This document shows, in pieces, positions 8,319 to 42,567 of a stretch of 43,880 bases of DNA. The DNA comes from a virus (lineage: Duplodnaviria; Heunggongvirae; Uroviricota; Caudoviricetes). The notes under the pieces were generated by a model that did no database searches, was not told the DNA's origin, and worked only from the letters and a program-made list of their open reading frames with translations. The stretch is from IMG/VR virus record IMGVR_UViG_3300045988_187204. One strand, 5' to 3'. Every line of letters begins with the position of its first letter. Position 1 is the first letter of the stretch. Made by a program: the position numbers and the translations under genes.

Positions 8319-8340
8319 AATTGAATATTTTATTTTATGG

Positions 8341-8348: not shown

Positions 8349-8360
8349 ATAAGGAGGAAA

Positions 8361-8744: not shown

Positions 8745-8966
8745 AATTTGCAAGTTTATTATTATCTTTGTTGCAAATTTAATAATAATATTTGGAATAT
8801 GCAAGTATTTTGTGTTAAATCTTTGATTTGTTTTGCGGTATGGTGGAAAAATATTATATTTGCAGTGGCAATTTAATTTTAGAAAGTATGAATAAAGATT
8901 TTGCTTTAATATTGGTAAACATAATATGCGCCTTAACGGCATTTGTTTGTATGATAATCACTATTG

Positions 8967-9323
8967 TTATTTCATTAGTGAGATTATAATAGTAATACAC
9001 ATAGATGCGATTGTAATAATCGTGCAAATGATATTGATATATTCTTTGTATTCTTTCAGAAGTGTCAGTCTCTCCTGTCTTCTCTTCTGTTTGTTATAGC
9101 CTTTCTTGGCAGCATTCTCCCCTTGTGGTGTCAGCTTATAATAAGCTTCTCCCCACTCATAAACAAGTCCCTCGTCTTGAAGTGATTGTAGAACATCGTA
9201 TGGCTCAATGTCATATCCATACGTATCATTTATAGCACTGTGTACATCGTCTTTGTTAGGACTACCTTCTAAGAACTGGCTTAAAATGAAATCTGCGATT
9301 TCTATTTGCTTTTTAGTCATCAT
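8967..9323 (-). CDS. Small tail-anchored membrane protein, function unknown
   Basis: ORF track 8967..9407; start refined to ATG at 9323 (MMTKKQIEIADF…); C-terminal hydrophobic segment IICTIITIASMCITIIISL. Confidence 0.4.
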   Translation of the reverse strand: MMTKKQIEIADFILSQFLEGSPNKDDVHSAINDTYGYDIEPYDVLQSLQDEGLVYEWGEAYYKLTPQGENAAKKGYNKQKRRQERLTLLKEYKEYINIICTIITIASMCITIIISLMK

Positions 9324-9375
9324 AATCAAATAAAAACGGCTCGTGCATCGGGAGGGCAGTCCTTCAGCACGAGCC
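9324..9375 (-). terminator. Hairpin with U-tract (- strand) abutting the start codon of the 8967..9323 gene; terminator or 5' leader structure
   Basis: GGCTCGTGC (9338-9346) / GCACGAGCC (9367-9375) 9-bp stem; - strand flank GUUUUUAUUUG. Confidence 0.35.
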
Positions 9376-9506
9376 ATTAACAGCTGTATATCTTTATGTC
9401 TTGCCACTCATGAGACCTGCCCGAATCATGTTTGACATCATTGTCTTTAAATATGGTGCAAAGATAACGCTTTTATCTGAAAGCACCAAATGATTTTACG
9501 AAAACT

Positions 9507-10118
9507 TTATTTCACCACCTCTATGTATCTCGAGTAATCAATCTTGGAGTGGGGATTGTGGCTGACTATCTGCACCTGATAGCCCTTGGTGCCCCATCGC
9601 CACCAGAGGAACTTGTGGCGGTAGGTGCGGCTCACGATGGTCGTCAGGCTGTCTCGAGACGAGTACTGGCACTCTCGCTTGGGGATGTCGATATGGAGGG
9701 AGAGCCATTGGTCTCGGTAGGTGTAGATGGAATCGGGGATGCCGGAACCAGCCACGGCGGCGGTCGGTTCGGGCGTGAGATAGACCGTATCGGCGGTGGT
9801 TGACGAAGCTGTGTGGATAGACTGCACATCTTTGAGCCGCACTTTGAGGTCTTTGATGAGCTTGGTATCGGCGAGGTGGAGCTTTTGCAGCTCGTCGTAT
9901 TTCGACTGAAGGGCGTTGAATATGGCGACATTGAGAGTGTCTCTCACGTTGGCATATTCAATGTCGTAGTTGAGGTTGGCAACGTTGTAGCTCTGTCGGT
10001 CGAGGTCTGCCTGAAGCTGCTCGCACTTGTTGGCGGAGTGTATGAATGCGACTGCGGTCACGATGAGCAGGGCTGCCAGAAGCTGGATGATAATCTTGGG
10101 TGTAATCTTTTTTGTCAT
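9507..10118 (-). CDS. Lysis-associated type II membrane protein (spanin-like candidate)
   Basis: ORF track 9507..10205; start refined to ATG at 10118 (MTKKITPKIIIQLLAALLIVTAVAF…); N-terminal TM anchor then coiled-coil-like region; immediately downstream of the endolysin. Confidence 0.4.
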   Translation of the reverse strand: MTKKITPKIIIQLLAALLIVTAVAFIHSANKCEQLQADLDRQSYNVANLNYDIEYANVRDTLNVAIFNALQSKYDELQKLHLADTKLIKDLKVRLKDVQSIHTASSTTADTVYLTPEPTAAVAGSGIPDSIYTYRDQWLSLHIDIPKRECQYSSRDSLTTIVSRTYRHKFLWWRWGTKGYQVQIVSHNPHSKIDYSRYIEVVK

Positions 10119-10147
10119 TGTCTTTTTGAAAATGATTGGTGAGTGAG

Positions 10148-10573
10148 TTATGCGATGTCTTTGTATTCGTCGATGGCATTGAAGCAAGGACACATCTTCT
10201 TCCATTTGGACTTGTCCTTGCCCCAGATGTCACGATGGCCCATTATCTGGGCATCTGGGAATTGTTGCTTCAGTTTGTGGAGTAGCAAAACGAGGGCGTC
10301 TTTTTGCTCTGGTGTGCGGTTGTCGATAGCCTTGCCCTTAGCGTCGATGCCACCGATATAGGCGACGTTGATGGCTGTGGAGTTGTAGCCCTGCACGCCG
10401 TTGCTCACCTTTTCGATGGCTAGGAGTTGGTGGATGCCGCCGTTTGGGGCGATGACGTAGTGATAACCTGGATTGGTCCAGCCCTTGCGGCGGAACTCTG
10501 CCTTGAGGTCGTCGATGGACTGGCTTTGCGACCCTGCGGTGCAGTGAACGAAAATGCGTTTAATCTGTCTCAT
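10148..10573 (-). CDS. N-acetylmuramoyl-L-alanine amidase (Amidase_2/PGRP-type endolysin)
   Basis: ORF track 10148..10627; start refined to ATG at 10573 (MRQIKRIFVHCTAG…); motifs IFVHCTAG, GYHYVI, MGHRD typical of T7-lysozyme-like zinc amidases. Confidence 0.8.
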   Translation of the reverse strand: MRQIKRIFVHCTAGSQSQSIDDLKAEFRRKGWTNPGYHYVIAPNGGIHQLLAIEKVSNGVQGYNSTAINVAYIGGIDAKGKAIDNRTPEQKDALVLLLHKLKQQFPDAQIMGHRDIWGKDKSKWKKMCPCFNAIDEYKDIA

Positions 10574-10814: not shown

Positions 10815-10841
10815 GGTGAATCTTGTTTTTGTTTTACAGTG

Positions 10842-10849
10842 CAAAGATA
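10842..10849 (-). promoter_or_regulatory. Putative -7 promoter element (TATCTTTG on - strand) for the lysis cassette
   Basis: + strand GTGCAAAGATA; same extended motif recurs upstream of many - strand genes (20700, 26063, 28748, 37676, 38817). Confidence 0.35.
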
Positions 10850-10861
10850 AGAAGGGTAGGG

Positions 10862-10901
10862 TGATAATAAAAATACGAGACCGCCCTAACGATCTCGTAT
10901 T
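10862..10901 (-). terminator. Intrinsic terminator (- strand) after the gene ending at 10915
   Basis: Stem AATACGAGACCG / CGATCTCGTATT (11 of 12 bp, same stem sequence as the 8371 hairpin), then U-rich tract on the - strand. Confidence 0.45.
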
Positions 10902-11328: not shown

Positions 11329-12972
11329 TCACGTGAATTTATAGAACTTCTTTTTGAATTTATTGTGAAGCTCTGCGACCACGGTGGAGAAGGGTAGCTC
11401 ATCACGACAGAAGTCGTTGAGGGCTTGGTCTATCAAGATCTTGGAGCCTGTATAGAGGTAGTGCTCCAGAGGTTGCCATACCTCGGTGCCGTCTGGCTCC
11501 AGGTGGTCGATGATGCGATAGCGTAGGGAGAGGCGCTTCTTGGGCACCTCTTTGGTGACCATGTGGGTGGAGCCGTCCGGGGCGGTCTCCTCTTGCTGGA
11601 TGGTCTCCTTCTCTATCACCGAGTCATCGACCTTGTAGTCTATCACTTGAACGAGGAACTTGTTCTCGTCCTGACCCTCACGGCAGATGATGTCCTCGAT
11701 GGACTGCTGCTGTGATTTCTCCATACCGTCAAAAGGCACGCGCGCACGGCGAGCCTTGACGAGTTTACCGAATCTTTCCATACCGATTTTCTTATATAAG
11801 TTTTTAGAGTTTGCGTGGATGCCCAGACCTAGGCGAGAGGCTGCCTTGAGCTGTATCTGGCGGTCTGTGAAGCCCGCCTTGCGTAAGTTGGCGATCTGTC
11901 TGCAGAGGTCGTGCTTGAACCGCTTGCGCAACAGGGCGTGGTCGGCGTAGATGATCTGACCGCAGAAGTCGATGCCATCGCAGGTGCGGTGGATACCCCA
12001 AGACTTATTGATGGATAGGTGCCAGTCACGGGCGAGGTGCATCACGGCAAGCTCTGCCATCAGCCTGAGGAACACCTTATCCTCGTGGAGGATGTAGATG
12101 TTGTCCATGAAGCGGTAATAATGGCGAAGACCTTGGCGGCAGAAGCGCTCGAACCTATCGTTGAGCGACTTCACTCCCCCGCATAGCAGTTGAGCTTGCT
12201 GCTGAGTGCGACAGGTAACGAGCATGTCGATCACGTAGCGAGCCTGCCAGTAACGGAACTTGTCGGTGTCTTGGAGAATGTCGAAGCATCGGAGTGCCAG
12301 GTAATCGAAGCGGGCGAGGAAGAGCTGACCCAAGAGTTGGGCGAGCTTGACGCCGAGCACGATGCCTGGATTGAAGCTATCGACCACCTCGTCGATGAAG
12401 GCGAGGAGCTTGCGGTCTTTGATCTTGCGGCGATATTCACTTTTGAGAAGAGCGTGGTCTATGCTCTGAAAATAATGGTGAATATCCATGGGCAAGCAGT
12501 AGAAGGTATCTTGCTGTGGCGAGTTGAAGATGTCTCGCTTGACAAGATTATAGAAATAATGGGTGCCCTTGCCCTTGGAACCAGCCGGACTGTGGCTGTA
12601 GAGTGTCTTGCGAAGGTTATCCTCTACAGGTTGCAGGGCAGCGTGCTGGATGACGTGGTCGATAACGGGCAGCTTGTTGACTTGGCGATGTTTTGGATAG
12701 TCGATATCTTTGGCGACATAGGCTGAGGTATGCCAAGTTTGTTGGGTGTAAGCATCGAGCATGCGTCCGATGTTATGGTCTAGGTTTGCCTCGAATTTTT
12801 GGACCGCACGGCGAGACATCTTTTGTCGGGCGTAGTCATAGAATGCCCGACGAAAGTTGTCTAGTGTCTCGACCTGTGGCGATATGTTGCCAAACCTTTT
12901 CATAAGCGGTGTAATGTCTGTGTTGAACGGTGTATAAACTGTGTATAGTCTGAATCGTCTGCTTTTGTACAC
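11329..12972 (-). CDS. Reverse transcriptase of a diversity-generating retroelement
   Basis: RT-like motifs in order: YFQSIDH (motif 2-like), GIVLGVKLAQLLGQLF (motif 4 with the DGR-typical [I/L]Gxxx[S/A]Q in place of QGxxxSP), RFMDNIYIL (motif C position), GIDFCGQII (motif 7-like); TR lies 140 bp upstream. Track start at 12972 is GTG; first in-frame ATG is at 12903. Confidence 0.85.
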   Translation of the reverse strand: MYKSRRFRLYTVYTPFNTDITPLMKRFGNISPQVETLDNFRRAFYDYARQKMSRRAVQKFEANLDHNIGRMLDAYTQQTWHTSAYVAKDIDYPKHRQVNKLPVIDHVIQHAALQPVEDNLRKTLYSHSPAGSKGKGTHYFYNLVKRDIFNSPQQDTFYCLPMDIHHYFQSIDHALLKSEYRRKIKDRKLLAFIDEVVDSFNPGIVLGVKLAQLLGQLFLARFDYLALRCFDILQDTDKFRYWQARYVIDMLVTCRTQQQAQLLCGGVKSLNDRFERFCRQGLRHYYRFMDNIYILHEDKVFLRLMAELAVMHLARDWHLSINKSWGIHRTCDGIDFCGQIIYADHALLRKRFKHDLCRQIANLRKAGFTDRQIQLKAASRLGLGIHANSKNLYKKIGMERFGKLVKARRARVPFDGMEKSQQQSIEDIICREGQDENKFLVQVIDYKVDDSVIEKETIQQEETAPDGSTHMVTKEVPKKRLSLRYRIIDHLEPDGTEVWQPLEHYLYTGSKILIDQALNDFCRDELPFSTVVAELHNKFKKKFYKFT

Positions 12973-13111
12973 TTGATAACCTTCGACCGGATGACCGTGT
13001 TGTCATCATCTACCAGCTGTCTTATTAATGTGTATGTATCGCCATGGGGCGAGGATTGACCCTGTAATCTCGAAGTGGGAGCAAACGACCCACGAAGAGA
13101 TATGTCTGTAA

Positions 13112-13233
13112 GTTGAGGGCGGCGCCGTAGTTCACATTGGCATTCGAGACAGCATTGTTCACGTTGAGCGTCGAAAGACCGCATTGACCACCATTGTTAG
13201 CGTTAGCACCACGAAGGCAGACACGAAAACCGG
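13112..13233 (-). repeat. DGR template repeat (TR)
   Basis: About 122 bp matching 13523-13644; across 13115-13233 all 12 differences are at TR adenines (sense strand), 0 of 97 non-adenine positions differ. Confidence 0.9.
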
Positions 13234-13267
13234 CACCTAGGGTCACACCCTGGTATCATAACCGCCG

Positions 13268-13275
13268 CAAAGGTA
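13268..13275 (-). promoter_or_regulatory. Putative -7 promoter element (TACCTTTG on - strand) upstream of TR-RT
   Basis: + strand CAAAGGTA at 13268-13275, about 35 nt upstream (- strand sense) of the TR. Confidence 0.35.
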
Positions 13276-13471
13276 ATAAAAATAATCGGTATGGAAGCAT
13301 GTCAAAGAGCTTTTTTGATGTTTTTATTGATATTTTTTTTGTCGCCGACCGCCACAGGCGGTAACTTAAGGCGAGCTACGCTCGCTGGGTGCTTCGGCTT
13401 CGCCGAGGGTGCTCAGGTCTCTTTTGCACACCCAGTAAACCGATGCACACCCAGCAAACTGATGTAGTCTT

Positions 13472-14944
13472 TTAGGCCGCCTCGTAATACACGGGTTCAA
13501 CGGACCACTCGGATGCTGCTTCGCAGAGGGCGGCGCCGAAGTCCACATTGGCATACGAGACAGCAAAGCTCACGTAGAGCGTCGAAAGACCGCACCGACC
13601 ACCACTGCAAGCGTTAGCACCACGAAGGCAGACACGAAAACCGGATGTAGCGCCGCTAGTATTCCAGAAATAGCTAGTCCAATAGGTTGACTCGGATGCG
13701 CCCGTGGCGGTCGGGAAGTTCTCCAGATGCTCCATCGAGAGCGTCTTGATAAAGCCTTCGCCCTTGGTCGGCGAGGTGCTGTAAGCCACCATGCCATCGG
13801 CGGAACCTATCGTCCACGTGCCGTAGATGGACGGTGCCACGAGATGGGTCACGGAAGTGTCCTCGTTGCAACGCACCTGCTCGTCATCCATGTGTCGCCA
13901 CAATAAGCCGAAGCCATTTTTGTAGCCGAAGAAGGATGGTATCTTGGCGGTATAGACCACGGTGCCATCGTCTTTTTTGACCTCGTAGCTCGCCTCGCCG
14001 CAAGCGTCGCCCAGCTCGATGCCGGCAGACATCGGCACGATAGGGCGATAGCCGTTGTAACCACCCCAATCAGGCATCTGTGTCACGCCAGCTCCGAGAC
14101 CACCCTGGTAGAGACCGTTGGCATCTTTTTGGCTGTTGATGGCATCCTGGTCGTAGTGGGTGCCGAAGATGACCCCGAAGAGCACGGCGATGGCAGAGGT
14201 GTGGCGCATGGTGGTGCAGAGCCAGCCTGTACCATTCTTGCGGGCTGCGGCACGCCAGTATTCGGTAGTCTGGTTGGTGGCAGCCTTGCCCAGCATGGTG
14301 CGGTTGGTGTTATCTAACGTTGAGTCGTTGTTGCCGCCTCGGTAGTCTGTGCCCTCGTTGATGTAGCTCACCAGCTTGCCTGTGCTGCGCTCTAGCGTGG
14401 CGAAGCCAGCGGCGGAGATGCTGCCCACAGGTATCTTGTAGTTGTACTCGCCAGGTATTGGCGTAGGGCTGACCATCTCGTAATGGAGTCTGCCCACGGT
14501 CTTGATGACCATGTACCACTCCTTGCCCCAGCCCCACTGGTAATGCCCCTCTGAGCCATCGAGCTTGGCTGTCTCGCCGGTGGCATACTTGTGGTGGTCT
14601 TTGGAGTCGAGCTTGCGACGGGAGTGGTCATTCTTGACCAGATAACAGCCCAGACCCAGCTCCGTTGGTAGGGTCTGCAGTAACTCTAGCGAGCCCACAT
14701 AAGTGGCGGCTTTAGGGGTTGCATTGTCGAGGTTCCACACTCGACCACACCAAGGATGCTGTCCCATTTGGACGGCGCTTTTGAGCGACATCTGCTCAGA
14801 CCTGCCGGATTTTTTGTCGAAGACCTCGACAATCTTGTCAGTGGCGCTCATGTCTGACTGTGGGAGGTCGTCAACCTGTTGACCTCCATCGAAAGCGGCT
14901 ATGATAGCCTTGAGCTTACTCTCTTCTTCTGATGTTAATGCCAT
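13472..14944 (-). CDS. DGR target (variable) protein; C-terminal variable region, likely receptor-binding virion protein
   Basis: ORF track 13472..14992; start refined to ATG at 14944 (MALTSEEESK…); C-terminus …GFRVCLRGANACSGGRCGLSTLYVSFAVSYANVDFGAA… is the VR (TR encodes …GFRVCLRGANANNGGQCGLSTLNVNNAVSNANVNYGAA…); C-lectin/FGE-like fold is inferred, not shown. Confidence 0.85.
   Translation of the reverse strand: MALTSEEESKLKAIIAAFDGGQQVDDLPQSDMSATDKIVEVFDKKSGRSEQMSLKSAVQMGQHPWCGRVWNLDNATPKAATYVGSLELLQTLPTELGLGCYLVKNDHSRRKLDSKDHHKYATGETAKLDGSEGHYQWGWGKEWYMVIKTVGRLHYEMVSPTPIPGEYNYKIPVGSISAAGFATLERSTGKLVSYINEGTDYRGGNNDSTLDNTNRTMLGKAATNQTTEYWRAAARKNGTGWLCTTMRHTSAIAVLFGVIFGTHYDQDAINSQKDANGLYQGGLGAGVTQMPDWGGYNGYRPIVPMSAGIELGDACGEASYEVKKDDGTVVYTAKIPSFFGYKNGFGLLWRHMDDEQVRCNEDTSVTHLVAPSIYGTWTIGSADGMVAYSTSPTKGEGFIKTLSMEHLENFPTATGASESTYWTSYFWNTSGATSGFRVCLRGANACSGGRCGLSTLYVSFAVSYANVDFGAALCEAASEWSVEPVYYEAA
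13523..13644 (-). repeat. DGR variable repeat (VR) inside the 3' end of the target gene
   Basis: Direct alignment with the TR (offset 411 bp); ends 17 codons before the stop at 13472. Confidence 0.9.
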
Positions 14945-14966
14945 AATAAAAATTATATTTAATCGA

Positions 14967-15731
14967 TTAAACAATGCGTAATTTATCACCAACTTTTCTA
15001 AGCTTGCCCGATGCCGACAGGCGAAGGCGAGGCTGGCGCACGGTGATGCTGACCTCTTGCCAGAGCGGTGTGTTGGCGGTGGGGATGACCCAGAACTTGG
15101 TGGTGCCCTCGCCCTTGATGATGAGGTTGCCGCTTGGGTCTGCCACGAGCGAGTCGCCCTCGGCTCGCTGGAAGAGCACGCTCTGAGGGAGGTAGCTCGG
15201 CAGGATCTGCACGGCGATGCGCTGAGCCACCTTGTTGCGTAGGCTTATCTCGGGGAGATAGGTCAGGTTCATGCGAGCTGGCGCGATGAAGCCTGTGGTT
15301 ATCTGAGCGGCGAGACCATCCATCTGCGCTATCTTGGCATCGGCTCGCTTGGATGCCGCGTCAGCCTCTGCAGCCTTGGTCTCTGCCAAGGCTGCCTGTG
15401 ATGCTGCAGCCTCGCCCTGCTCGCCAGCCGCCTTGGCTGCGCTCTGGGCGAGGTTAGCCGCCTTGTTGGCATCGTCGGCCGCACCCTGCGCTCTGACGGT
15501 CGGTGTCTTGTCGAGCCACAAGCGCCACTTGGCGTTGGTATCTGAAGGAGTCGTCGTGTTGCCATCCTCTAGGGAGGCGAAGACTCCTGACGATGTGTGA
15601 ACGATGTCGCCCTCGTCGTAGCCCTTGACGGTCTGGCCATCCTCATCTTGATAGGAGTAGCCCGACTGCCAGGTGCCCTGGTCGGTGAAGGCGACATTGC
15701 CCACGATAATGATGTTTGTGTTATCTGCCAT
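14967..15731 (-). CDS. Virion protein in the tail-fibre cluster (Ala/Gln-rich central segment), function unassigned
   Basis: 254-aa ORF, ATG at 15731; immediately upstream of the DGR target gene. Confidence 0.45.
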   Translation of the reverse strand: MADNTNIIIVGNVAFTDQGTWQSGYSYQDEDGQTVKGYDEGDIVHTSSGVFASLEDGNTTTPSDTNAKWRLWLDKTPTVRAQGAADDANKAANLAQSAAKAAGEQGEAAASQAALAETKAAEADAASKRADAKIAQMDGLAAQITTGFIAPARMNLTYLPEISLRNKVAQRIAVQILPSYLPQSVLFQRAEGDSLVADPSGNLIIKGEGTTKFWVIPTANTPLWQEVSITVRQPRLRLSASGKLRKVGDKLRIV

Positions 15732-20683: not shown

Positions 20684-20699
20684 ATTTTTTATTTTGATG

Positions 20700-20707
20700 C
20701 AAAGATA
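20700..20707 (-). promoter_or_regulatory. Putative -7 promoter element (TATCTTTG on - strand) upstream of the large tail-fibre gene
   Basis: + strand TGCAAAGATA about 15 nt upstream of the ATG at 20683. Confidence 0.3.
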
Positions 20708-20735
20708 GGTATGATGAGAACTATATAAAAATACG

Positions 20736-26039: not shown

Positions 26040-26080
26040 ATCAATGTCTCATTAAAACGATGCAAAGATAGGAAGGAAGG

Positions 26081-26123
26081 GGAGAAAATAAAAATACCTG
26101 ATTGTCATCACGACAACCAGGTA
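26081..26123 (-). terminator. Intrinsic terminator (- strand) after the small-gene cassette
   Basis: Stem TACCTGATTGTC / GACAACCAGGTA (11 of 12 bp), loop ATCAC, U-rich flank on the - strand (+ strand GGAGAAAATAAAAA). Confidence 0.4.
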
Positions 26124-28945: not shown

Positions 28946-29629
28946 TTATAGCTTTCCTTTGTCGTGGTAGCTGTAGAAGCCATCCTCAGCCAAGATGATA
29001 TGGTCCATCAAGAAAAGTCTCATCACCTCGCACGCCTTGGCTATCTTCTGCGTGAGCATATCGTCCGCCTTGCTCGGCTGCGTGCTGTTCGATGGGTGGT
29101 TGTGTGCCACGGCGATGATGGTTGCATTGTTGAGCACGGCTTCTTTCATTATCAGTCGAACGTCCACCGCTGTCTCGGTGATGCCTCCCTCGCTGAGCTT
29201 GGTGCACTTTATCAGCCTAAAGTTTTGGTTCATCAGCACTACCCAAAAGCCCTCTGTCTCATTGCAGCCTATCATTGGGCGAAGATAGTTGTAGAGTGCC
29301 AGGCTGCTGCCTAGGTCGGTGTTTCTCGCTACCTTTTCCATTTGGTAGCGTCTGCCTAGCTCGATGGCTGCCTGTAGGGCTATCGCCTTGCAGTCTCCAA
29401 TTCCTGGTACCACTTCCAGGTCTTCTATTCTCGCCTTGCCGATGTTGCGAAGCGAGTTGCCCATGATGTTATAAATCTGTCGTGCCTGCTCTTGGCTGTC
29501 CTTGGTACCTGCCCCTCTGTTGATTACCAAAGAAATCAAGTCAACGTTGGTAAGGGTGTCGAAACCTTGGTTATAGGCTCTGTACTGCGGTCTCTCCTCC
29601 ATACAAAGATTGTTATAATTTTGTCTCAT
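28946..29629 (-). CDS. RadC-like JAB/MPN-domain protein
   Basis: 227-aa ORF, ATG at 29629; C-terminal …TIIAVAHNHPSNSTQPSKADDMLT… carries the JAMM-like H-x-H-P-S…D signature of the RadC family. Confidence 0.75.
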   Translation of the reverse strand: MRQNYNNLCMEERPQYRAYNQGFDTLTNVDLISLVINRGAGTKDSQEQARQIYNIMGNSLRNIGKARIEDLEVVPGIGDCKAIALQAAIELGRRYQMEKVARNTDLGSSLALYNYLRPMIGCNETEGFWVVLMNQNFRLIKCTKLSEGGITETAVDVRLIMKEAVLNNATIIAVAHNHPSNSTQPSKADDMLTQKIAKACEVMRLFLMDHIILAEDGFYSYHDKGKL

Positions 29630-29644
29630 ATCTTTTGTTATTTG

Positions 29645-30169
29645 TTAGTTATACATTCTCTTTGTTCTCGCTAGGAACATCGCTCCCATCACTTGTGCGC
29701 CACATTCGGCTAGCTCGTTGGCGAACTCTCGGGCGGTCGCTCCGCTCGTCACCACGTCGTCGAAGATGATGACTTTCTTTCCGCTGAAGTACTCTCTATC
29801 GAGTGCCACTCTGTAGTCGAAGCTCTCACACACTCTGTCTGTGCTGAAGTGCTTGGCTGTGCGCTCTCCATAGATGGAAATGTGCTCGTTTCCGTTCTGT
29901 ACCTTTGCGCCTTGGCTCACCTTTTGGGCGAAGCGAGAAAAGCGCTTGGTGTACTTCTTTGAGTTGGCTGCTGGAGCGCAAACCATCACGAAGTCGCTGG
30001 CTTTGTCGCCATAGGTGTTGACGAAAGAGCTGACCACCATATCGGCAGCTGCGTCTGTCGCCCACTGCTTTCCATCCTTGAAGGCAAAGATGAAGTTTCT
30101 CACTTGCTCTGCTTGTGCTGAGCGGTCGAAACGCTTGGAGCTGTACTCGTAATAATTGAAAGTTTTCAT
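29645..30169 (-). CDS. Phosphoribosyltransferase-domain protein (ComF-like type I PRTase fold)
   Basis: 174-aa ORF, ATG at 30169; …KKVIIFDDVVTSGATAREFANEL… is a typical PRPP-binding loop. Confidence 0.65.
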   Translation of the reverse strand: MKTFNYYEYSSKRFDRSAQAEQVRNFIFAFKDGKQWATDAAADMVVSSFVNTYGDKASDFVMVCAPAANSKKYTKRFSRFAQKVSQGAKVQNGNEHISIYGERTAKHFSTDRVCESFDYRVALDREYFSGKKVIIFDDVVTSGATAREFANELAECGAQVMGAMFLARTKRMYN

Positions 30170-30437
30170 ACGCTTAAAATTTTTATTCTAGCCAGAGGGA
30201 GGAAGGAGCTTTTTTATTTGAACTCGTCTTTGCCTGCCCGTCTGAGAGTTTTTTTTATTCTGTCCGTCGGTCGTTTTTGTCGCTTTTTACGGTGCGATGC
30301 AGACGAGCGGAGAAGAGGTATGAAAGCCAAGGAATTTTGCAAAAAGTTTATGGAAAACCGTCATCTCTGATTGCGGAAGGCTGCCGAAAAGTTTTTGGAA
30401 AATAGATTTATCGGTACTTGGTGCATGCCGTCCGCCG

Positions 30438-30445
30438 TACCTTTG
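30438..30445 (+). promoter_or_regulatory. Putative + strand promoter -7 element inside the 0.9-kb ORF-free region
   Basis: GTACCTTTGCAC at 30437-30448, identical to the 12-mer in the tRNA promoter (587-598); -33 element not obvious. Confidence 0.3.
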
Positions 30446-31067
30446 CACCCGAAAAAGAGATAATGACCGATGGATAACCGATAAAGGGAAAAGCTCTCGG
30501 ACAGGAAAAGCGGGCAAAGAAAAGGCTCTGCCTTACCTTGGTGGTTAAGCCTTAGCGACGTTTGAGCGCCATCACGGTCACCACCGCTTGAAAATTCGCA
30601 AATTTTAACCCTAGCGTATGAAATGAAAGATGGAAAATTTGCGTCATCAAAAACACCATGTTTTTCAGACTTCAGGAGGAAAAACATACCTTGGAGCGAT
30701 GAAATCGCAGCATTTGGCAGGCTTCGACCCCGAGGTTGAAGATGCCAAATGTGTCGTTTTACGACAGGTTTTCCACACCCACGGATTGGAAAACCCCGAT
30801 TTTATCGTGGTTTTAGGGATTCAAAGGGAAAATAATTCCCCTTTGTCGGCGATAGCACCCCCCACCGCCCTACGCCCGAGCGCGCCTTCCGCCCCCTTGG
30901 AAAAGACGGAATATGTAAAAGACCGTTAACGTTTTTGTAGGAATGTAAAAAGCCAAAAGGCACGAAAAAAGGGAACACGCTTCGCAGCGCACTCCCCTTA
31001 TCTGCGGTCAAGCAAGAATGCCAGCCACCTAACTTATATAAGAATCGTACTATCTAAAGAAATCAAA

Positions 31068-32669
31068 CTATAGCATGGAACCCGTGGCGATGTAGCCATC
31101 AGCCTGAGGGTATTTCTCCATGCCAATCATGAGCGTGTCGTAGGCATCGGAGCCATCGGTGCGAGCCTCCAACTTATCCTCCTCGGTCTCAGCCAGCTTC
31201 TCGCCTCGCTTATCCTTCTTGCCGTTGTAGACCCCGGCCAGGCGGATGGAGATGAGCAGGTCTTCGTTGTTCTCGCTGTTGATCATCGAGCGATGCTCAG
31301 CCTTGCCGAGGAACATGCGGTTGAGCAGAAGCATCTTTTCGAGATGTCCCATCGGGTTGCCCAGATAGACCTCGTTGACATACCAGCCATGGTCGGTGAG
31401 GTAGTCGGTGATGAAGGTATGGAAGTCATCGTTCATCAGGGCGTAGTTGTTGCCCACGAAGGTGGAGTCGTAGTAGAAGTTGACCTCTTTGCACCGATGG
31501 TACTCATAGTACTGCATGAACTTGTCGAGCAGGGCTGGCAGCTTCTCCTCATACTTCACGAAGATGCTCTTGAGGCAGCGTGCCTCGCCCCGCAGGTTGT
31601 CTTGTCCGACGGCTATCCAGTTGATGAGGGCGTTGGCATCGAAGGCGATGCAGAGCGGACGGTCGGGGTCAACGTCGGCATCCATTCTGGAATCTACATG
31701 CTTGAGCTTGTCGATGTCGTAGCCCAAGCCATCGAGGTAGGCGAGGTTGGGCGCCGTGTATAGGTTGGCATCCCTGAGGTTGGAGTAGAAGCCATCGAGC
31801 GAGATGGAAGGTCGCTTGCACATGATGGAGGTCTGGAAGGTGAGGGCAGGGAGGTCTCGCTTCATCTGCTTGATGAACTCCATGCCGAGCACCTCGATGT
31901 TATAGACCGATGAGTACTCTTTATAGAAGAGTGCCTTGGAGCGCAGTTGCGCCAGGAGCTGACCAATCTCTCGGAGTCGGCGCTGGGCATAGCCTGAGAC
32001 ATGGCCCGAGGTCTTGATGCGGTTGCGTATGTCATACTCCTCTACCACGAGCGAGGCGATGGCGTCGATGAGCAGCTGGTCGCAGTCTTTCTTGTAGTTG
32101 AGGAACCAGGAGCCCTTCTTGGTCACGGGCATATCAGAGGTGATGAGCATGCCATGGTGGTAGTAGTGCTGGCCGAAGAGGTTGACGTTGCCTCGATTGG
32201 CAGGGAAGGTCTCGTCTTTGAGCTGTTCGAAGTTGATGAACTTCGCCTCGTCGATGTCGAGGTAGTCGAGCGAGAGGGAGTTGGAGGTACCCTTGCGGTC
32301 TTGCGAGATGATGGTACCGATGGAGCCGTTATAGAAAGAGATGGTGTTCTCCCAGTTGCTGGGCGGTATGACCGGGTCGGGCCATCCCAGTTTTTTGGGA
32401 GGCTTGACCCCGATGAGATAATGCTTGCCCCGGTGGAAGCCCCATCGCTCCCAGTGCTGAAGCATCGACGGTATGGTGTTGGTGAGGCATCGCTTGGTGT
32501 TGGCGGATACGAAGCCGCCGTTGCTGCCAGGCATGCGCTGCATGTTGCGCAGGTTGAAGGTGGCGTGGAGAATGCTCTTGCCGATGCCTCGACCGCCCAC
32601 GACCACGTTGTCGCGGGCGGAGATGAGGTTGACCTCCATCTGGGCTGGGTTGAGATATTGATCTATCAT
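31068..32669 (-). CDS. terL: Terminase large subunit
   Basis: 533-aa ORF, ATG at 32669; N-terminal Walker A …VVVGGRGIGKS… and Walker B-like …LDYLDIDEA…; ATGA start/stop overlap with the upstream gene. Confidence 0.75.
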   Translation of the reverse strand: MIDQYLNPAQMEVNLISARDNVVVGGRGIGKSILHATFNLRNMQRMPGSNGGFVSANTKRCLTNTIPSMLQHWERWGFHRGKHYLIGVKPPKKLGWPDPVIPPSNWENTISFYNGSIGTIISQDRKGTSNSLSLDYLDIDEAKFINFEQLKDETFPANRGNVNLFGQHYYHHGMLITSDMPVTKKGSWFLNYKKDCDQLLIDAIASLVVEEYDIRNRIKTSGHVSGYAQRRLREIGQLLAQLRSKALFYKEYSSVYNIEVLGMEFIKQMKRDLPALTFQTSIMCKRPSISLDGFYSNLRDANLYTAPNLAYLDGLGYDIDKLKHVDSRMDADVDPDRPLCIAFDANALINWIAVGQDNLRGEARCLKSIFVKYEEKLPALLDKFMQYYEYHRCKEVNFYYDSTFVGNNYALMNDDFHTFITDYLTDHGWYVNEVYLGNPMGHLEKMLLLNRMFLGKAEHRSMINSENNEDLLISIRLAGVYNGKKDKRGEKLAETEEDKLEARTDGSDAYDTLMIGMEKYPQADGYIATGSML

Positions 32670-33295: not shown

Positions 33296-33573
33296 ATTCT
33301 AATCTCCTCTAACATTTGGTTCAGATATTCGTGTGTGCGCTGCACCGCCTGTGGCGAGCCAGCCGCAGCCAGGTCTAGCTCGTTTTTGCGTATCTGCTGG
33401 CGCACCGTCGCCATGCCCAAGTAATAGACACGGTGAAGCTCGGAGTCGGGCTTCAGTATCTCGTCACGCAGATCGTCCTCGCTAATATCCAAAAGGACGG
33501 ACATCTCGGATATCGGAGTCAACGTCTCCGCGAAGTCTTGCACTTTTTTGAGTAATTCCTGAGAAATTTCCAT
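33292..33573 (-). CDS. Hypothetical small protein (start uncertain)
   Basis: 93-aa ORF overlapping the upstream gene; an internal ATG at about 33504 would reduce the overlap. Confidence 0.3.
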   Translation of the reverse strand: MEISQELLKKVQDFAETLTPISEMSVLLDISEDDLRDEILKPDSELHRVYYLGMATVRQQIRKNELDLAAAGSPQAVQRTHEYLNQMLEEIRI

Positions 33574-34057
33574 TGATTCTTAAGCTTTGAGTGTCACAAT
33601 GAAGGGTATATCCGCCGAAGAGGTCGGCGAAGACCTGCGGGTCGGTGGTGATGATGGTTGACTCGTCACGGCTGCCGTAGGTCTGGTTTTGCGAGGTGAC
33701 GACCGACACGACGTGCTGGTCGTTGCGGAAGAGTGTCACCTTGGAGTGGTTTTGCCCCAGGAACACATCGTCGAAGCAGGTCTGCATCATGCGCCACAGC
33801 TGCACGGTCTTTTTGCTCGCCTTGACATCGAGCAGCATCGTTGCCGACAGGATGCTGCCCGACTGGCGCATCAGGCGGAAGCCTCGCAGGAACTCCTCGG
33901 AGGTGGAGTAGGAAGACACCCACACATCTGCAGGGCCTATCTGGGAGAGAATCCACTTGATGAGACCGAGGGTGTGGAGGTGCCGCCCGAAGTAGGCTTG
34001 CGTCTGGGCATCGGCGATGGGACGGAGCAGGTCACTGACCTTGACCTTGGTCGGCAT
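33482..34057 (-). CDS. Hypothetical protein
   Basis: 191-aa ORF. Confidence 0.4.
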   Translation of the reverse strand: MPTKVKVSDLLRPIADAQTQAYFGRHLHTLGLIKWILSQIGPADVWVSSYSTSEEFLRGFRLMRQSGSILSATMLLDVKASKKTVQLWRMMQTCFDDVFLGQNHSKVTLFRNDQHVVSVVTSQNQTYGSRDESTIITTDPQVFADLFGGYTLHCDTQSLRINGNFSGITQKSARLRGDVDSDIRDVRPFGY

Positions 34058-36626: not shown

Positions 36627-37652
36627 TTATGCGAACTGATTTAAAGCATCCAACACTTGATCTGAGCAGAAATCCTCGACCTTGGTGTCATCGACAGCAG
36701 TGTGCGTGTCGCCACCAGGCTCTCCCTCCAGATCCTTCACTTTATCCTTCAGGTCATCTCTCTCCTTTTCGAGATTCTTGACCTGAGTCTCTAACTCCTT
36801 CTTCTCATCCTTGACCTTCTGAAGCTCTGTGTCTTTGTCGGTCACGGCCTTGGAGTCGGCAGCAATCTTATCCTCCAGCTTCTGCATCTGCTCCTGAGAG
36901 ATGGTGCAGTCCTTGGCTGAATCCTCTGCCTCAATGCCCTCGATGTTGAGGACATTGTTGATGTGAGTCCATTTTTTAATCATATTAATAATTTTGTTTT
37001 GAGATTTATCTTTACCGAAAATTCGGTCGATGAAGCTTGGCTTTTTATCATACCAAGAGTTGACGACCTCAGGGAGCACCGGAAGGTTGTTGTACTTGAT
37101 GAAGTCTTGTGTCTGCTCTGTGATGTCAGCAGGTTTGCCATCCATGGACTCATCGACGAGACCCAGTTCGATGCACTCATCGACGGTGTGCCACTTTGCC
37201 TCGGACATCACCTTGACGATGTCCTCGTGCTTCTTGCCCGAGCGATCGCAGTAAACGTTGGCGATGATGTTGTCGATTTTCTGCTGGTTCTCTTGCTGTT
37301 TTTGAAGCTGCTCGATGAGCGAGCCTATCTGCTCCTCGTTGAGCGCAGACCACACAAACTGCTCGGTAGAGCACTTGTGTACCAGGAGCAAGCTATATTT
37401 GCTCATGCGAATCTTGCTGGCACCCATCGCACAGATGGTGGCAGCAGAGGCAGAGAAGCCCGCCTGGAAGTCAACGGTCACATCGCCATGGGACTTGAAC
37501 ATCTGGCAGATGGCGAGACCTGCGGAGACCTCACCACCCAAGGAGTCGATGGCAACATCGACGTGCTTGTCTTTGTTAGCCTTGAGAATGTCGCGGACCA
37601 TGAGTTTTGTCCACGAGCCAATATATCCAGTGATAGAAATTTGGTACTTCAT
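36627..37652 (-). CDS. Prohead serine protease (ClpP/S49-like) fused to a C-terminal scaffold-like coiled coil
   Basis: 341-aa ORF, ATG at 37652; …DSLGGEVSAGLAI… and …FSASAATICAMGAS… resemble Clp-type protease active-site regions; K/E/D-rich C-terminal coiled coil. Confidence 0.6.
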   Translation of the reverse strand: MKYQISITGYIGSWTKLMVRDILKANKDKHVDVAIDSLGGEVSAGLAICQMFKSHGDVTVDFQAGFSASAATICAMGASKIRMSKYSLLLVHKCSTEQFVWSALNEEQIGSLIEQLQKQQENQQKIDNIIANVYCDRSGKKHEDIVKVMSEAKWHTVDECIELGLVDESMDGKPADITEQTQDFIKYNNLPVLPEVVNSWYDKKPSFIDRIFGKDKSQNKIINMIKKWTHINNVLNIEGIEAEDSAKDCTISQEQMQKLEDKIAADSKAVTDKDTELQKVKDEKKELETQVKNLEKERDDLKDKVKDLEGEPGGDTHTAVDDTKVEDFCSDQVLDALNQFA

Positions 37653-38796: not shown

Positions 38797-38940
38797 ATAG
38801 CTATGCAATTTTCGTGCAAAGATACAAAGAAAATTTGAAATAACTAACGATAATCGGTAAAAACTAACTTTTATCAGTAAATTTGGTGTGATATAATTTC
38901 GTCCGAAAAGTTTGTATTTTTGTATCGTACAAACAAGGCT

Positions 38941-39190
38941 CTGTAACTAGCTGATAATCAATACTATTTTTGTGATACAATTTTCTGATACAGAAATTGT
39001 AACTCTTTAGCTTTTGTAACTTGGGGTTTTGTCGAGGTCGAAGACCTGTAGGAGAAGGGGCTTGTTACAAACTTGAAAAACTTTGTAACCGAGTTGTAAC
39101 GCAACTTTGTAAACATCGGCATGGCGGCTTAACTCACTCTTTTTTAGTTATTTACATCTTTTGCTAACATTATGTTACAGAGTTACAAAG
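38941..39190. repeat. Iteron-like array of TTGTAAC / GTTACAA heptamers (candidate replication origin or multi-site operator)
   Basis: TTGTAAC at about 38997, 39014, 39083, 39094 (plus TGTAAC at 38942 and TTGTAAAC at 39107); GTTACAA at about 39064 and 39183; small palindromes TTGTA-tcg-TACAA and TTGT-gat-ACAA nearby. Confidence 0.45.
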
Positions 39191-39334
39191 GATTTGTATA
39201 AAATAAAAGAAAGGGGTGTGGGGAAAACGATGGCACGGGGCGTGAAGGAGGTTAGAAAAGGCCCATCGAGACACCCAGGACACCCCCATTGGCCAATGGA
39301 GGGGTAGCGAGACGAAACATCGCCCATGGCAACG

Positions 39335-39369
39335 AAAAAAGGGAGCGACGGCCAATGCGCATCGCTCCC
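39335..39369 (-). terminator. Intrinsic terminator (- strand) downstream of the primase-helicase gene
   Basis: Stem GGGAGCGA (39341-39348) / TCGCTCCC (39362-39369), then six U on the - strand (+ strand AAAAAA at 39335-39340). Confidence 0.45.
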
Positions 39370-39501
39370 TCGTAACATGGGAAAAGAATTATAAATCAGC
39401 AAAAATCTGCCTATGAAATCAGCCCTCGTCTGCTTGCAAAAATAGTGAAAAATTGCTTGAAAATTTAGCCGAAAATATTTGCATAATTCAGATATTTTTT
39501 G

Positions 39502-39509
39502 TACCTTTG
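39502..39509 (+). promoter_or_regulatory. Putative + strand promoter facing into the 3' end of the primase gene (antisense)
   Basis: TTTG at 39478-39481 and TACCTTTG at 39502-39509, 20-nt spacing; same GTACCTTTGCAC 12-mer as the tRNA promoter. Confidence 0.35.
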
Positions 39510-39550
39510 CACTATAACTTGGGGCTATCTATTCTATTATATATGGATGG

Positions 39551-42504
39551 CTAGAAAGGTTTATCACTATCTTTATCTACCTTGCTCCAGTCAATGGTAG
39601 ATTGATATTCACCCCCAGCTGCAGGGACATCAGCCTTGGCAGCTTGTTTATCCTCTTTTTTATCATCACTCTTCTTGCTTCGGAGATAGATCATCTCGAC
39701 AGGGCTGCCGTCTGGGTTAGCTGGATCGCGTCTGATGATGCGGTGCTGGCTGTTGCAGAGATCAGCTGGGTTCAGCTCTTGGATGTATGGACACAGCTCG
39801 ACGAAGGCTCTGAGCTTTTTGGTGAAGCTCTGTGTGGTCGCCTTGTTGATGCCTGAGAACTGCTTGAAGTCATTGAACGCACGCTCTCTCACGATAAATG
39901 TATCGAGTCGCTCGCTCTCTTCTGAGAAGTAGGATGCAGCCCAGTCTTCGAAGTTGACACCCATGTCGGCCTTGAACTTGCGCTTGATGATGTTATCCAT
40001 CGGTGGCATGATCTTGATAGGTTCGCCAGCCAAGGAGAGATAGAAACGACAGCACTGCAGGAAAAAGTTGATGTCAGCATTCCACTCATCCTCAGTGTAT
40101 GTCTTTGAGAAGAGATCTTCGTCGAAGTCATCACGGATGCTTCGGGTCTCTTGGTAATCATTCTCCTCTGTGCGCTGATGGTAATAGTCGGAGAACACCA
40201 TATAGAGCAGTCTCGCCTCTGAGGAAGGGTCGAAGTCTGCCGGCACGTAGTTGGTGGTGAAGGCAATCTTCGGGCTATCCTCGAAAGGAATTGTGAAGCT
40301 CTGGTTGTTCTTTGGGTTGACTGTCATATCTGAAGTAATGTTATCGTAAAATAAACCTGTGTTGAGATAGCGGTCACAGTCATCGAGGAGCAGCATCTGG
40401 GTGTGCTGTGTCACCTGATCGAAGACGTGTGGGTTGTCCATCAGCTTAGGGTTGCGTCCGGAAAGCTTGACTGTTTTCATCAGCAGTGAAAGCGTCTTGA
40501 AGAAGAAACTCTTACCGGAACGGCCGTTGCACTCGTTGTTTTCACCAATCTTGTTGTCCATCGCCATCGGAGCCCAAGCCCTGGATGGTGCCTTGTAATG
40601 ATGGAGCATGTAGCCGAAGGTGAAAATCTTGTTTATCAAGTTCTGCTTTTGCTCTTGTATCTCGTTGTCGGCAAGCCCTTCGCCAGCGATGTCGAAGAGG
40701 TGTGCCTTGTGGTATGCCTCTTTCTCCTCGATGCTCTTGTCCTCAAAAGCATACTCTAGCTCTTTGCGCCAGTAGGTGCGAGAGGCGTTGATGAGATAGC
40801 CGAAGAAGTGGGACTTCACGTTCTTGACCTCGATGTCGAACTTCGGCCTGCCATCCTCGTCGATGGTTCGTGTGATGGAGAACATGTCATCCAACTTCTT
40901 GAAGTTGTGGTTGATGACATTCTCTTGCCAAACATAGTTTTTGAGCGAGCTGCCCTCACGCTGGTACTCGTTTAGTCCATCTTTGGTGACCTCGACGCTG
41001 ACACGAGGGAAGAAGAACAACTGCGAGTGGTTGGTGTAGCTGGTGAAGTCTAGCGTAATCTCTTGGAGCGAGTCGAGCGCCGATGCCGACAGCTTTGGCG
41101 TGTTGAGCACCAAGTTAAGGATGTCACGCTTCTCAGCTCTCTCGATGACCCATTGGCGGCAGAACTCACGGATGTCTCTCGTGGTGATGAGCTTGACGAT
41201 GTTGCCCGTGATGCGAACATATTTGGTGATGGTCGAGTTGTCATCGTGCAAGGTATAGAAACCATTGAGACGAAGAAAATTGTAGAGGCACGCCGTGTCG
41301 ATGTAGTGGTCCCAGGTGTTAGCCTTTTTGTTGAGCTTGCTCACCCAAAATCGGGCTGGCATCGCCAGTGTCATGAGGTTGCGGAAGTCTTTGCGAGTAT
41401 TGCGCAGCTCCATCCAGTCTCGCAGGTCTTTGCGCCCCTTGCCACGGTTGTCGTGGTAGGTGCGAAGCCAAGAAGGCAACCATATCGTATGGATGTCGAT
41501 GAAGCGCAGGGCAAGCTCTGTGCCCTTGGCGATGCCCGTCTCGTCGATGTCGGGTATATTGTAGAGCACCTCGACATACTTCATAATCTCTCGGTACTCC
41601 TCGTCGCTGAGCTTGTAGGTCTCGGAGTTGAACCATAACGGGTTGTAGCCCATGGAACGGCAGCAGAGACTGTCACGCTCGCCACTGCAGATGAAAGCCT
41701 CGGGAAGTTTCTTCTCCTTGTAAGGCTTGGACTCGTCTGTGTTGGTCTTGTTGTACTCAGCCTCTTCACGGCGGTTGAACTCGTGATAGGCAGCCTTCAG
41801 CTCAGCTAGGCCATTGATGTATTGCTTAGGCTTGATGCCGTCTGGGGTGTAAGAGAATCGCCACTGCTTTTGGTAGTTGAGAGGCTCATATATCTTGTAG
41901 AACTTAACCTCAGGCTTGTCGCCTTCAGCTGGGCGAACCAAGCACTCACGCATAAAGATAGGGTAGTGCTCGTTGCTGTGCTTAATCTTGACCTTGCGGT
42001 CTTTGACGTATCCTATCCACTTGGCGGAATGCCAGTTGAGTGCATCGACGTGCTCTTGCTTGACGTTTGGACCCAGTACCTTCAGTTCATCCTCGGTGAA
42101 CTTCTCGTTCAGCTCGAAAGGTCTGGTACCATCTTTCTCGTTGATGGTGGCATCACGCTCTGTGAATGTAGGCTTGTTGACCTCTTTTTTGAGTTCATCG
42201 CTAACGTTGTATTCGGAAGCCAGTCTCAGGATGGCATCAGGAAAGCGGTCGATGCACTTCTCTCTCATGTAGAGGTCGATAGGTGACTCGGCAGAGCCGT
42301 CGCCGCCGAAGTCAGTCACTCGCCAGCAGTCTTTGAACTTTTTGAGACTGCAGGAAGGTGTTTTCTCATTGCGGATGGCAAAGTGCTTTTTAGGCGTGCC
42401 AGTCGTGCAATATTTCTGGACGCATTCTTTTGCGTCCGGGTATAGTGAGATGATGATGTCGAGACCATCATCTGTAGCTTGATAAATTTGTTCTGCTTTG
42501 ATCA
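39551..42504 (-). CDS. DNA primase / SF3-type helicase (P4/D5-like replication protein)
   Basis: ORF track 39551..42535 starts at TTG; first in-frame ATG at about 42504 (MIKAEQIYQ…); C-terminal half has Walker A …NECNGRSGKSFFFKTL… and Walker B …QMLLLDDCD…. Confidence 0.7.
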
Positions 42505-42567
42505 TAATTCTTTTCCATTGTAAATTTGCTTGCAAAATTATTGCAAAGCGAGTTCAAAACAAAATAC

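Follow-up and report, generated by a model that had tools for sequence, protein, structure and literature searches.

What lies between the terminase large subunit gene and its next neighbor in a tailed phage whose genes are otherwise tightly packed? We addressed this question in a stretch of 43,880 nucleotides from a virus of the class Caudoviricetes (IMG/VR record IMGVR_UViG_3300045988_187204), hereafter called the window. A gene-free gap at positions 30170 to 31067 runs from the start codon of a PRTase-like gene (29645-30169, minus strand), whose product carries the Pfam Pribosyltran domain, to the stop codon of terL (31068-32669, minus strand). The latter gene was identified by tblastn against annotated terminase large subunits (34% identity, E = 4e-81), and its product also gave a weak PHROG match. 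The original prediction, made from the sequence of the window, offered three readings of the gap: a non-coding RNA, a transcript expressed in lysogeny or the packaging site. Taken together these were partly supported, with comparative evidence behind a non-coding RNA on the plus strand and the packaging site as its main rival. Our preferred answer, to which we give a probability of about 0.5, is that the gap holds a new, large, structured phage RNA gene on the plus strand. Among relatives, an element within the gap is conserved together with its plus-strand helices, its promoter and its linkage to terL, and it has no coding potential.

We considered whether the gap codes for a small protein. 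The longest open reading frames (ORFs) in it are 30630-30929 (plus strand, 99 amino acids) and 30361-30687 (minus strand, 108 amino acids), and both are present in the window phage and its closest relatives. Neither ORF has a Pfam or PHROGs match. In relatives at 75 to 90% nucleotide identity, both are truncated, frame-shifted or differently started through insertions and deletions of 1, 2 and 4 nt, lengths that are not multiples of three. Moreover, conservation peaks in blocks that are read in differing frames among phages. The spacer between the two invariant blocks described below is 29, 30 or 31 nt long depending on the phage, so that no single reading frame can join both. No frame in 30170-31067 was found to be kept among relatives, and a protein product is extremely improbable. 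Since the ORFs are broken or re-started and non-triplet indels are common in relatives, the conserved region is non-coding yet under constraint. The absence of a credible gene was thus correctly predicted. The 99-amino-acid ORF had also been rightly rejected, although low complexity was the wrong ground for doing so and the unconserved frame is the right one. The gap is likewise real, but treating it as one 0.9-kb unit lumps four distinct parts: a non-coding stretch upstream of the PRTase gene, a plus-strand promoter, a conserved element and a minus-strand terL terminator.

We scanned with TerL and recovered 72 viral loci. Positions 30590-31067 are retained, at 71 to 95% nucleotide identity, in every one of the 56 loci with a TerL that shares 92% or more identity with that of the window, a degree of conservation well beyond chance. 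The left part (30170-30590 plus the PRTase gene) behaves as a swappable module, with sharp recombination breakpoints at about 30589-30591. The conserved element spans approximately 30597-30940, with a tail to 31009, and about 350 nt of it are conserved across phages whose TerL proteins are only 51 to 60% identical. Its most conserved block, CCCCCACYGCCCTRCGCC (30859-30876), gave matches in at least 120 viral contigs, and a large share of these are not close relatives. The parts of the element are as follows.

30597-30687, plus strand: two 5' hairpins, CGCAAATTTT/AAAATTTGCG (30597-30606 with 30634-30643) and ATGTTTTTC/GAAAAACAT (30658-30666 with 30679-30687)
30690-30820, plus strand: multi-helix domain, in which a long-range helix (30696-30707 with 30797-30808) surrounds four hairpins, from RNAalifold and pair counts
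30710-30719/30743-30752, 30721-30726/30731-30736, 30753-30757/30761-30765 and 30767-30775/30787-30795, plus strand: the enclosed hairpins
30769-30776, plus strand: conserved TTTTCCAC box
30747-30940, plus strand: universal core (covariance model R1), comprising the TTCCAC box, hairpins, 18-mer, spacer, 11-mer and U-run
30859-30876, plus strand: invariant 18-mer CCCCCACCGCCCTACGCC, which occurs once in the window
30877-30907, plus strand: variable spacer of 29 to 31 nt
30908-30918, plus strand: invariant 11-mer block GGAATATGTAA, which reads GCGGAATATGT in most families
30932-30936, plus strand: T-run after the GGAATATGTAA block
31000-31009, no strand assigned: third conserved block ATCTGCGGTC, past the terminator hairpin, reading GCATCCGCGGT in the GGCAAGT family; it may belong to the 3' tail of the RNA

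The GC-rich stretch noted earlier at 30857-30900 is real and corresponds to the invariant 18-mer and its spacer. Across families a common architecture was observed on the plus strand. At the 5' end there are several copies of a phage-specific 7- to 10-mer, a TTTTCCAC-like box and a long hairpin of 9 to 24 bp. These are followed by one or two short hairpins, often CUGC-GAAA-GCAG, and then by the 18-mer; in several family members, a GAAA tetraloop hairpin stands immediately 5' of it. The 3' end consists of the 29- to 31-nt spacer with one or two inverted motif copies, GCGGAATATGT, a U-rich stretch and the GCATCCGCGGT block. In other families, a phage-specific motif (GACTTGCC, GACTTTCC, GGCAATTGCC or CTAATTAGC) is present once or twice in the spacer, and its complement is found again upstream. 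The GGCAAGT family (e.g., loci L139, L201 and L222) has about 500 nt of extra non-coding sequence between the core and the next gene, at +90 to +630 from the 18-mer; this stretch contains a hairpin with a minus-strand G·U bias and the GCATCCGCGGT block, and the whole non-coding unit comes close to 900 nt.

Evidence for an RNA structure came from two alignments. The first, A1, comprised 46 distinct sequences of the window family, in all of which the 18-mer is invariant save for two transition sites (C/T and A/G). Under the A1 structure, 93.8% of cells were paired, compared to 42 to 54% when partners were slid by 1 to 3 columns, a contrast that the slid control flatters because the structure was derived from the A1 sequences themselves. 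The two 5' hairpins were 93.8% and 98.1% paired in this alignment, with U·G variants on the plus strand. Column pair 109/221 (30696 with 30808) was G·U in 18 sequences and C-G in another 18, and plus-strand G·U pairs were seen in 41/46 sequences at 30701/30803 and in 38/46 at 30721/30736.

The second line used a covariance model, R1, built from 17 sequences of another family. Of 64 representative sources searched with this model (cmsearch), 60 contained the element in the expected orientation. Covariance-model and RNA structure searches had been proposed as a check on the prediction; in the window, the custom model found 30747-30940 on the plus strand with 61.4 bits (E = 1e-12), and no Rfam family matched the region. 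We then aligned 62 diverse members to the model (alignment A3). Changes on both sides, i.e., compensatory ones, were present at all 21 modelled pairs, 78.5% of cells were paired compared to 37 to 44% in slid controls, and the covariation score was 0.319 compared to 0.107 in shuffles (0/500 as high) and at most 0.087 in slid alignments; as A3 was fitted to the structure of the model, these figures are somewhat inflated. In a raw MAFFT alignment of the seed sequences, 80.6% of cells were paired, compared to at most 47% when slid.

The strand was assigned from wobble pairs. A strand-neutral hairpin finder, in which G·T and A·C were treated alike, was applied to 41 cluster representatives and returned 18 G·T pairs on the plus strand compared to 1 A·C, corresponding to an estimated 12 or so independent cases against 1. 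One pair runs through G-C (locus L222), G·U (L201, L327 and L277) and A-U (L233 and L205). In A3, the count was 61 G·U to 31 A·C. The folding z-score of the window sequence was -5.41 on the plus strand and -3.69 on the minus strand, and the long-range helix appeared only in the plus-strand fold. Two other measures were set aside. Whole-region RNAalifold energies were nearly equal on both strands and therefore indecisive, and the G·U and A·C counts were used instead. Raw folding energies favored the G-rich minus strand in most members and were dropped as a base-composition effect. Together, compensatory helices (with A3 aligned to its model) and strand-specific tolerance of G·U are what is generally expected of a structured non-coding RNA.

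The element did not correspond to any RNA that we could find in the resources consulted. With Rfam 15 at the gathering threshold, the whole window gave only a tRNA and RT-17, both outside the region. At E values up to 10, the sole match in 30100-31150 was to BSnc120, at 14.5 bits where the threshold is 114, and is due to chance. No match was obtained in 14 diverse element loci against 4227 Rfam families, including GOLLD, ROOL, C4, pRNA, 6S and the radC motif. Targets complementary to the invariant blocks were absent from the window. In a blastn search against 50,697 phage records, the single match (126 nt, 75%) involved the promoter region and lay in a fecal contig without annotation. A full-text literature search found no paper containing the 18-mer or its complement, and our literature search found no relevant account of Bacteroides phage cos sites or of a terminase-linked structured RNA.

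A candidate promoter lies at the left of the element.

30170-30415, no strand assigned: conserved and non-coding, from the PRTase start codon to the plus-strand promoter, at least 81% identical and without a conserved ORF in module-sharing relatives
30416-30448, plus strand: predicted Bacteroides-type sigma-A promoter, with ACTTGG at 30416-30421, a 16-nt spacer and the -7 box TACCTTTG at 30438-30445
30449-30596, plus strand: family-specific 5' segment of the predicted transcript, kept only in loci sharing the left module

The promoter was first recognized by a 12-mer, GTACCTTTGCAC, which had been described as an exact copy of the tRNA promoter. This observation held: exact copies lie at 30437-30448 (plus strand), at 39501-39512 and at 587-598, where the 12-mer precedes tRNA-Met (627-702) by 29 nt. 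With up to one mismatch, the window has 6 sites compared to 0.16 expected, a number that none of 100 shuffles attained. The 12-mer contains TAnnTTTG, the -7 promoter box of Bacteroidetes. The sequence TACCTTTG at 30438-30445 conforms to this box and is identical to that of the tRNA-Met promoter of the window. Bacteroides sigma-A promoters (-33 TTTG / -7 TAnnTTTG) have their TTTG about 17-21 nt upstream of the -7 box; here, the predicted promoter has a conserved ACTTGG whose TTG (30418-30420) lies 17 nt before the TA; it reads CTTGG instead of the full TTTG. In relatives that share the left module (22 distinct sequences aligned), the -7 box is TACCTTTG or TAAATTTG; T, A and TTTG are fixed, the two free positions vary, and ACTTGG is kept at a constant upstream distance. 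We infer a transcription start at about 30450-30456.

An equivalent promoter was found in a second family. The CTAATTAGC family has a TerL 52 to 60% identical to that of the window and a left flank without overall similarity to that of the window. It carries aACTTGGcatacg...TACCTTTGCAG followed by GAAAAGGCGTAAC, i.e., an ACTTGG / TACCTTTGCAG promoter, 380 to 426 nt upstream of the 18-mer, and the first predicted transcribed bases of the window, GAAAAAGAGATAA, resemble those of this family. A promoter reading into the element thus seems well supported for the window phage and is not universal. Scans for sigma-70 promoters and simple terminators were uninformative in this Bacteroidetes phage and missed the terL terminator. 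The non-coding RNA of the original prediction is therefore backed by a conserved promoter, its equivalent in a second family, compensatory helices, a plus-strand G·U bias and the lack of a conserved frame.

The stretch left of the promoter has features of its own. Two 16-nt direct repeats lie at 30342-30357 and 30387-30402, and no canonical minus-strand TAnnTTTG box was found in 30170-30436. Positions 30170-30415 may serve the PRTase-RadC genes as a leader or promoter, or they may hold upstream control sites for the plus-strand promoter. The wider stretch, 30170-30436 (about 270 nt, conserved, non-coding and with T-runs), lies upstream of the PRTase-RadC genes, which are themselves situated behind the strong terL terminator.

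Besides the limits on the A1 and A3 figures given above, several observations weigh against an RNA gene. Only 14 of 56 representatives carry the plus-strand box, at -334 to -426, and in most of the others the box lies on the minus strand (-204 to -393), where it would serve the next operon to the left. In families lacking a canonical plus-strand promoter, none was found within 700 nt. Most families would consequently need a promoter that cannot be recognized for their RNA. No convincing plus-strand terminator was found, and the hairpin bias is open to another explanation, as single-stranded DNA hairpins would tolerate G·T too. In addition, a GC-rich invariant 18-mer beside terminase genes has the look of a cohesive-end site. 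Finally, phage-specific repeats, some of them palindromic (GGCAATTGCC and CTAATTAGC), occur in both orientations at fixed positions on either side of the core, and palindromes together with repeats near whole helical turns are typical of sites for DNA-binding proteins.

The positions of these motifs were mapped around the core. GGCAAG is found forward at -211, -181, -159, -138 and -128 and inverted at +27 and +36, with more copies near +145 and +285. GGAAAGT is found forward at -220, -190, -158 and -137 and inverted at +26 and +34. The palindrome GGCAATTGCC occurs at -197, +24, +76 and +255, and the palindrome CTAATTAGC at -133, +26 and +161. A part in RNA-RNA pairing would suit these motifs equally well. 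In minimum-energy folds, GGCAAGUC pairs with GACUUGCC, and in the GGCAAGT family, one upstream copy lies in a hairpin loop and another in a stem strand with a G·U pair. Within families, the upstream and spacer copies showed no fine-scale covariation. The window also contains a perfect 9-nt complement (30373-30381/30884-30892), which was rejected, as it is not conserved, lies upstream of the promoter and is probably due to chance.

The same motifs are central to the main rival, in which the conserved core is a cos/pac packaging site acting as double-stranded DNA. The 18-mer, with or without GGAATATGT, would be the cut site of the TerL nuclease, the flanking phage-specific repeats would be binding sites for TerS, and the RNA-like helices would be incidental or part of an overlapping transcript. 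In lambda, cosN is common between phages and cosB is specific, and the pac site of P1 has hexamer clusters; here, too, short repeats at fixed positions flank an invariant core, with a motif that differs by phage family. Repeat spacings of 10, 21, 22 and 30 bp are close to whole helical turns, an argument that is post hoc and weaker in other families.

Linkage to the packaging genes is consistent with such a site. A TerL homologue was located on the 11-mer side and on the opposite strand, i.e., convergent with the element, in 63 of 69 loci identified by the 18-mer alone. With the stricter pattern and at least 5.5 kb of flank, the figure was 71 of 71. The element lies at the end of the head-and-packaging operon. 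In the window, the head maturation protease (36627-37652), a 367-amino-acid ORF that we take to be the major capsid gene, a 191-amino-acid protein, terS and terL are all transcribed towards it. The stretch upstream of terS is coding, and there is no non-coding gap there able to hold a site. Within 33296-34057 (minus strand), the gap between the gene for the 191-amino-acid protein and terS is filled by a small unlisted ORF; the 191-amino-acid protein itself has an HxK (NHSKV) motif as in PLD-family nucleases and a weak PHROG "endonuclease" match. Read on the coding strand, gene order is terS-terL-[element]-PRTase-RadC or terS-terL-PRTase-RadC-[element]. Moreover, a swappable cargo hotspot adjoins the element, as in the cos-proximal regions of P2 and P4.

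Against a packaging site acting purely as DNA stand the helices, which change sequence yet keep pairing, with 18:1 G·T over A·C on one strand and with GNRA loops; double-stranded DNA sites evolve otherwise. One helix joins segments about 90 nt apart, and a conserved promoter is directed into the element. As a proxy for virion ends we took the contig ends in its vicinity; they are scattered (10, 40, 48, 53 and 127 nt downstream and 67 to 290 nt upstream) and show no common end. Furthermore, a search for satellites that have the element but lack terL found none among stricter-pattern loci with 5.5 kb or more of flank. We consider a cos/pac site possible, if on balance unlikely; it and an RNA gene are not mutually exclusive.

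A further candidate is ordinary intergenic control DNA at a module junction, i.e., terminators, promoters and recombination scars without a dedicated product. One such part is certainly present.

30965-30997, minus strand: terL intrinsic terminator, with an 11-bp stem (30971-30997) containing three minus-strand G·U pairs, followed by U6 (the complement of 30965-30970)

A GC-rich stem with a U-run on the transcribed strand is thus found here on the minus strand, and its plus-strand A·C mismatches (G·U on the minus strand) and A-run are kept in 46 of 46 relatives. This genuine terminator within the span, the minus-strand promoter of the next operon at the left edge in most families and the sharp breakpoints (about 30589-30591) at which differing cargo modules join would all fit control DNA. 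Left unexplained are some 350 nt conserved among phages with such divergent TerL proteins, two invariant blocks with a 29- to 31-nt spacer and nested compensatory helices without U-tracts. Close to the 18-mer (-200 to +50), promoter boxes are absent from both strands in 56 of 56 representatives. We regard control DNA alone as improbable.

Direct repeats also raise the question of a replication origin, which would consist of iteron-like direct repeats, a DnaA-box-like TTTTCCACA (30769-30777) and the GC-rich block. In the GGCAAGT and GGAAAGT families, direct repeats are spaced 21 to 22 bp apart, and TTTTCCACA fits the relaxed DnaA box, TTWTNCACA. This box varies by family (TTCCACT, TTGCACG or TTCCATA), the element is always linked to terL but to no replication gene, and the strand-biased helices argue against a purely DNA function. 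A better candidate origin lies elsewhere in the window, in the ORF-free stretch 38826-39550 with about ten TTGTAAC/GTTACAA repeats, and an origin at the conserved element is very improbable.

According to our preferred reading, a structured RNA on the plus strand, host RNA polymerase would start at the consensus Bacteroides promoter (-7 box 30438-30445) and transcribe rightwards, against the head-and-terminase operon. The RNA would be about 480 to 560 nt long, its 3' end falling somewhere from the U-run at 30932-30936 to the terL terminator region (about 31010 at most). The part that is conserved, 30597-30940, would fold into the two 5' hairpins, the multi-helix domain closed by the long-range helix and further hairpins. 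These helices would be followed at the 3' side by the two invariant, probably unpaired blocks (the 18-mer and GGAATATGTAA), split by the variable spacer. The single-stranded blocks may bind a partner common to all these phages, either the terminase/portal machinery or a host factor, and the phage-specific complementary 7- to 10-mers may form long-range or intermolecular RNA pairings. Such an RNA would act in or regulate the packaging module, rather than being a simple antisense RNA. We infer the production of this RNA, its start and end and its action. A more specific proposal is a packaging RNA for classical TerS/TerL tailed phages, which would bind the terminase-portal complex via the 18-mer and 11-mer and oligomerize via the 7- to 10-mers, as an analogue of the phi29 pRNA or as a ROOL/GOLLD-like assembly with an identified partner. 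We put forward this version as a long shot.

The compact pattern 18-mer-N(22-42)-GGAATATG was used to follow the element among bacteria. It was present in 30 species-representative genomes, 29 of them Bacteroidales (Phocaeicola, Bacteroides, Segatella/Prevotella, Muribaculaceae, Paraprevotella and Porphyromonadaceae), and in at least 120 gut and rumen metagenome contigs. The sole match outside Bacteroidales, locus L212 (CAVCRI010000224.1) from a Lachnospiraceae-labelled bin, combines an element of the window family with a TerL that shares 96% identity with the window's; its label is probably a binning error. Overall, the element accompanies the terminase gene in hundreds of phages of gut and rumen Bacteroidales. 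The element is available in cultured strains, namely Segatella salivae DSM 15606 and S. maculosa DSM 19339, as well as in cultured Bacteroides ilei, B. mediterraneensis, Phocaeicola acetigenes (KGMB11183) and P. intestinalis. If it encodes an RNA, it would join, as a new and abundant class, the small number of large ornate RNAs from bacteria and phages with unsolved functions. If it is a cos/pac site, it would be the packaging signal of a widespread family of temperate Bacteroidales phages and would aid prophage delimitation, transduction studies and phage engineering. Either way, CCCCCACYGCCCTRCGCC-N(22-42)-GGAATATG is a compact marker of this phage lineage and of the adjoining cargo hotspot.

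The hotspot occupies 28946-30590 in the window and lies at about 8100-10500 in loci L006, L012, L045, L048 and L050. In otherwise near-identical phages, its cargo is either PRTase plus a RadC-like JAB protein or a SocA/Panacea antitoxin plus a small membrane protein; a DUF2335 gene and a 338-amino-acid protein of unknown function are alternative cargo.

Other features were observed elsewhere in the window. A diversity-generating retroelement at 11329-14992 (minus strand) includes an Rfam RT-17 RNA at 12955-13056 and a repeat pair, 13115-13233/13526-13644 (119 nt, 90% identical), that resembles a template and variable repeat, the second copy lying in the 3' end of ORF 13472-14992. Unexpectedly, the 547-amino-acid ORF at 11329-12972, the expected reverse transcriptase, had no Pfam match at E values up to 0.01. 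The second ORF-free region (38826-39550, 725 nt) holds its repeats at 38939-39190, which makes it a possible replication origin, and has a minus-strand terminator-like hairpin at about 39340-39370. The third exact copy of GTACCTTTGCAC (39501-39512, plus strand) points into the 3' end of a 994-amino-acid gene (39551-42535, minus strand) and suggests an antisense or non-coding transcript. A minus-strand promoter-like module is repeated at 8325-8391, 10826-10892, 20684-20735 and 26061-26113, with the canonical box TATCTTTGCA (TGCAAAGATA in plus-strand view) and a conserved ATAAAAATACG about 30 nt away; it may represent a shared late-promoter architecture. The tRNA-Met gene (627-702), with its 12-mer promoter, adjoins a tyrosine integrase (819-1982, Pfam Phage_integrase), and this end (587-1982) is probably the prophage attachment end.

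We compared the element with known phage systems. Like lambda cos (cosQ-cosN-cosB) and P1 pac, it lies beside terminase genes and has a common GC-rich core with phage-specific flanking repeats, comparable to the cosB R sites and the P1 hexamers; some 30 bp from this core, another short block is conserved. In contrast to these sites, it is downstream of and convergent with terL, not upstream of or inside terS, and it has strand-biased covarying helices and an inward promoter. The C4 immunity RNAs of P1/P7 and the CI RNA of P4 also hold their specificity in short sequences that are complementary to same-strand repeats and differ between heteroimmune phages. Unlike them, the element has no Rfam C4 match, is several times larger and has no plus-strand genes downstream to regulate. 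The phi29 pRNA is likewise a structured phage RNA tied to packaging, with phage-specific complementary sequences for intermolecular pairing; for the element, a packaging role is purely conjectural. No pRNA model matched the element, and its phages have an apparently conventional TerL and a putative TerS, unlike phi29.

In kind, the element would most resemble GOLLD and ROOL, though it is unrelated to them. These are large ornate non-coding RNAs of phages and prophages (Weinberg 2017, PMC5737381; cryo-EM study PMC12286853) and form homo-oligomers (PMC12286853). The element shares with them a length of hundreds of nucleotides, many conserved helices, invariant unpaired blocks, an occurrence in gut and rumen phages and prophages and an unknown function. 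We speculate that its self-complementary or paired short motifs could support oligomerization. It differs in matching neither Rfam model, in its Bacteroidales hosts and in being fixed beside terL, whereas GOLLD and ROOL lie beside tRNA genes. If it is an RNA, then, unlike GOLLD or ROOL, it would have a fixed genetic partner in the terminase operon, and this partner would offer a concrete experimental entry.

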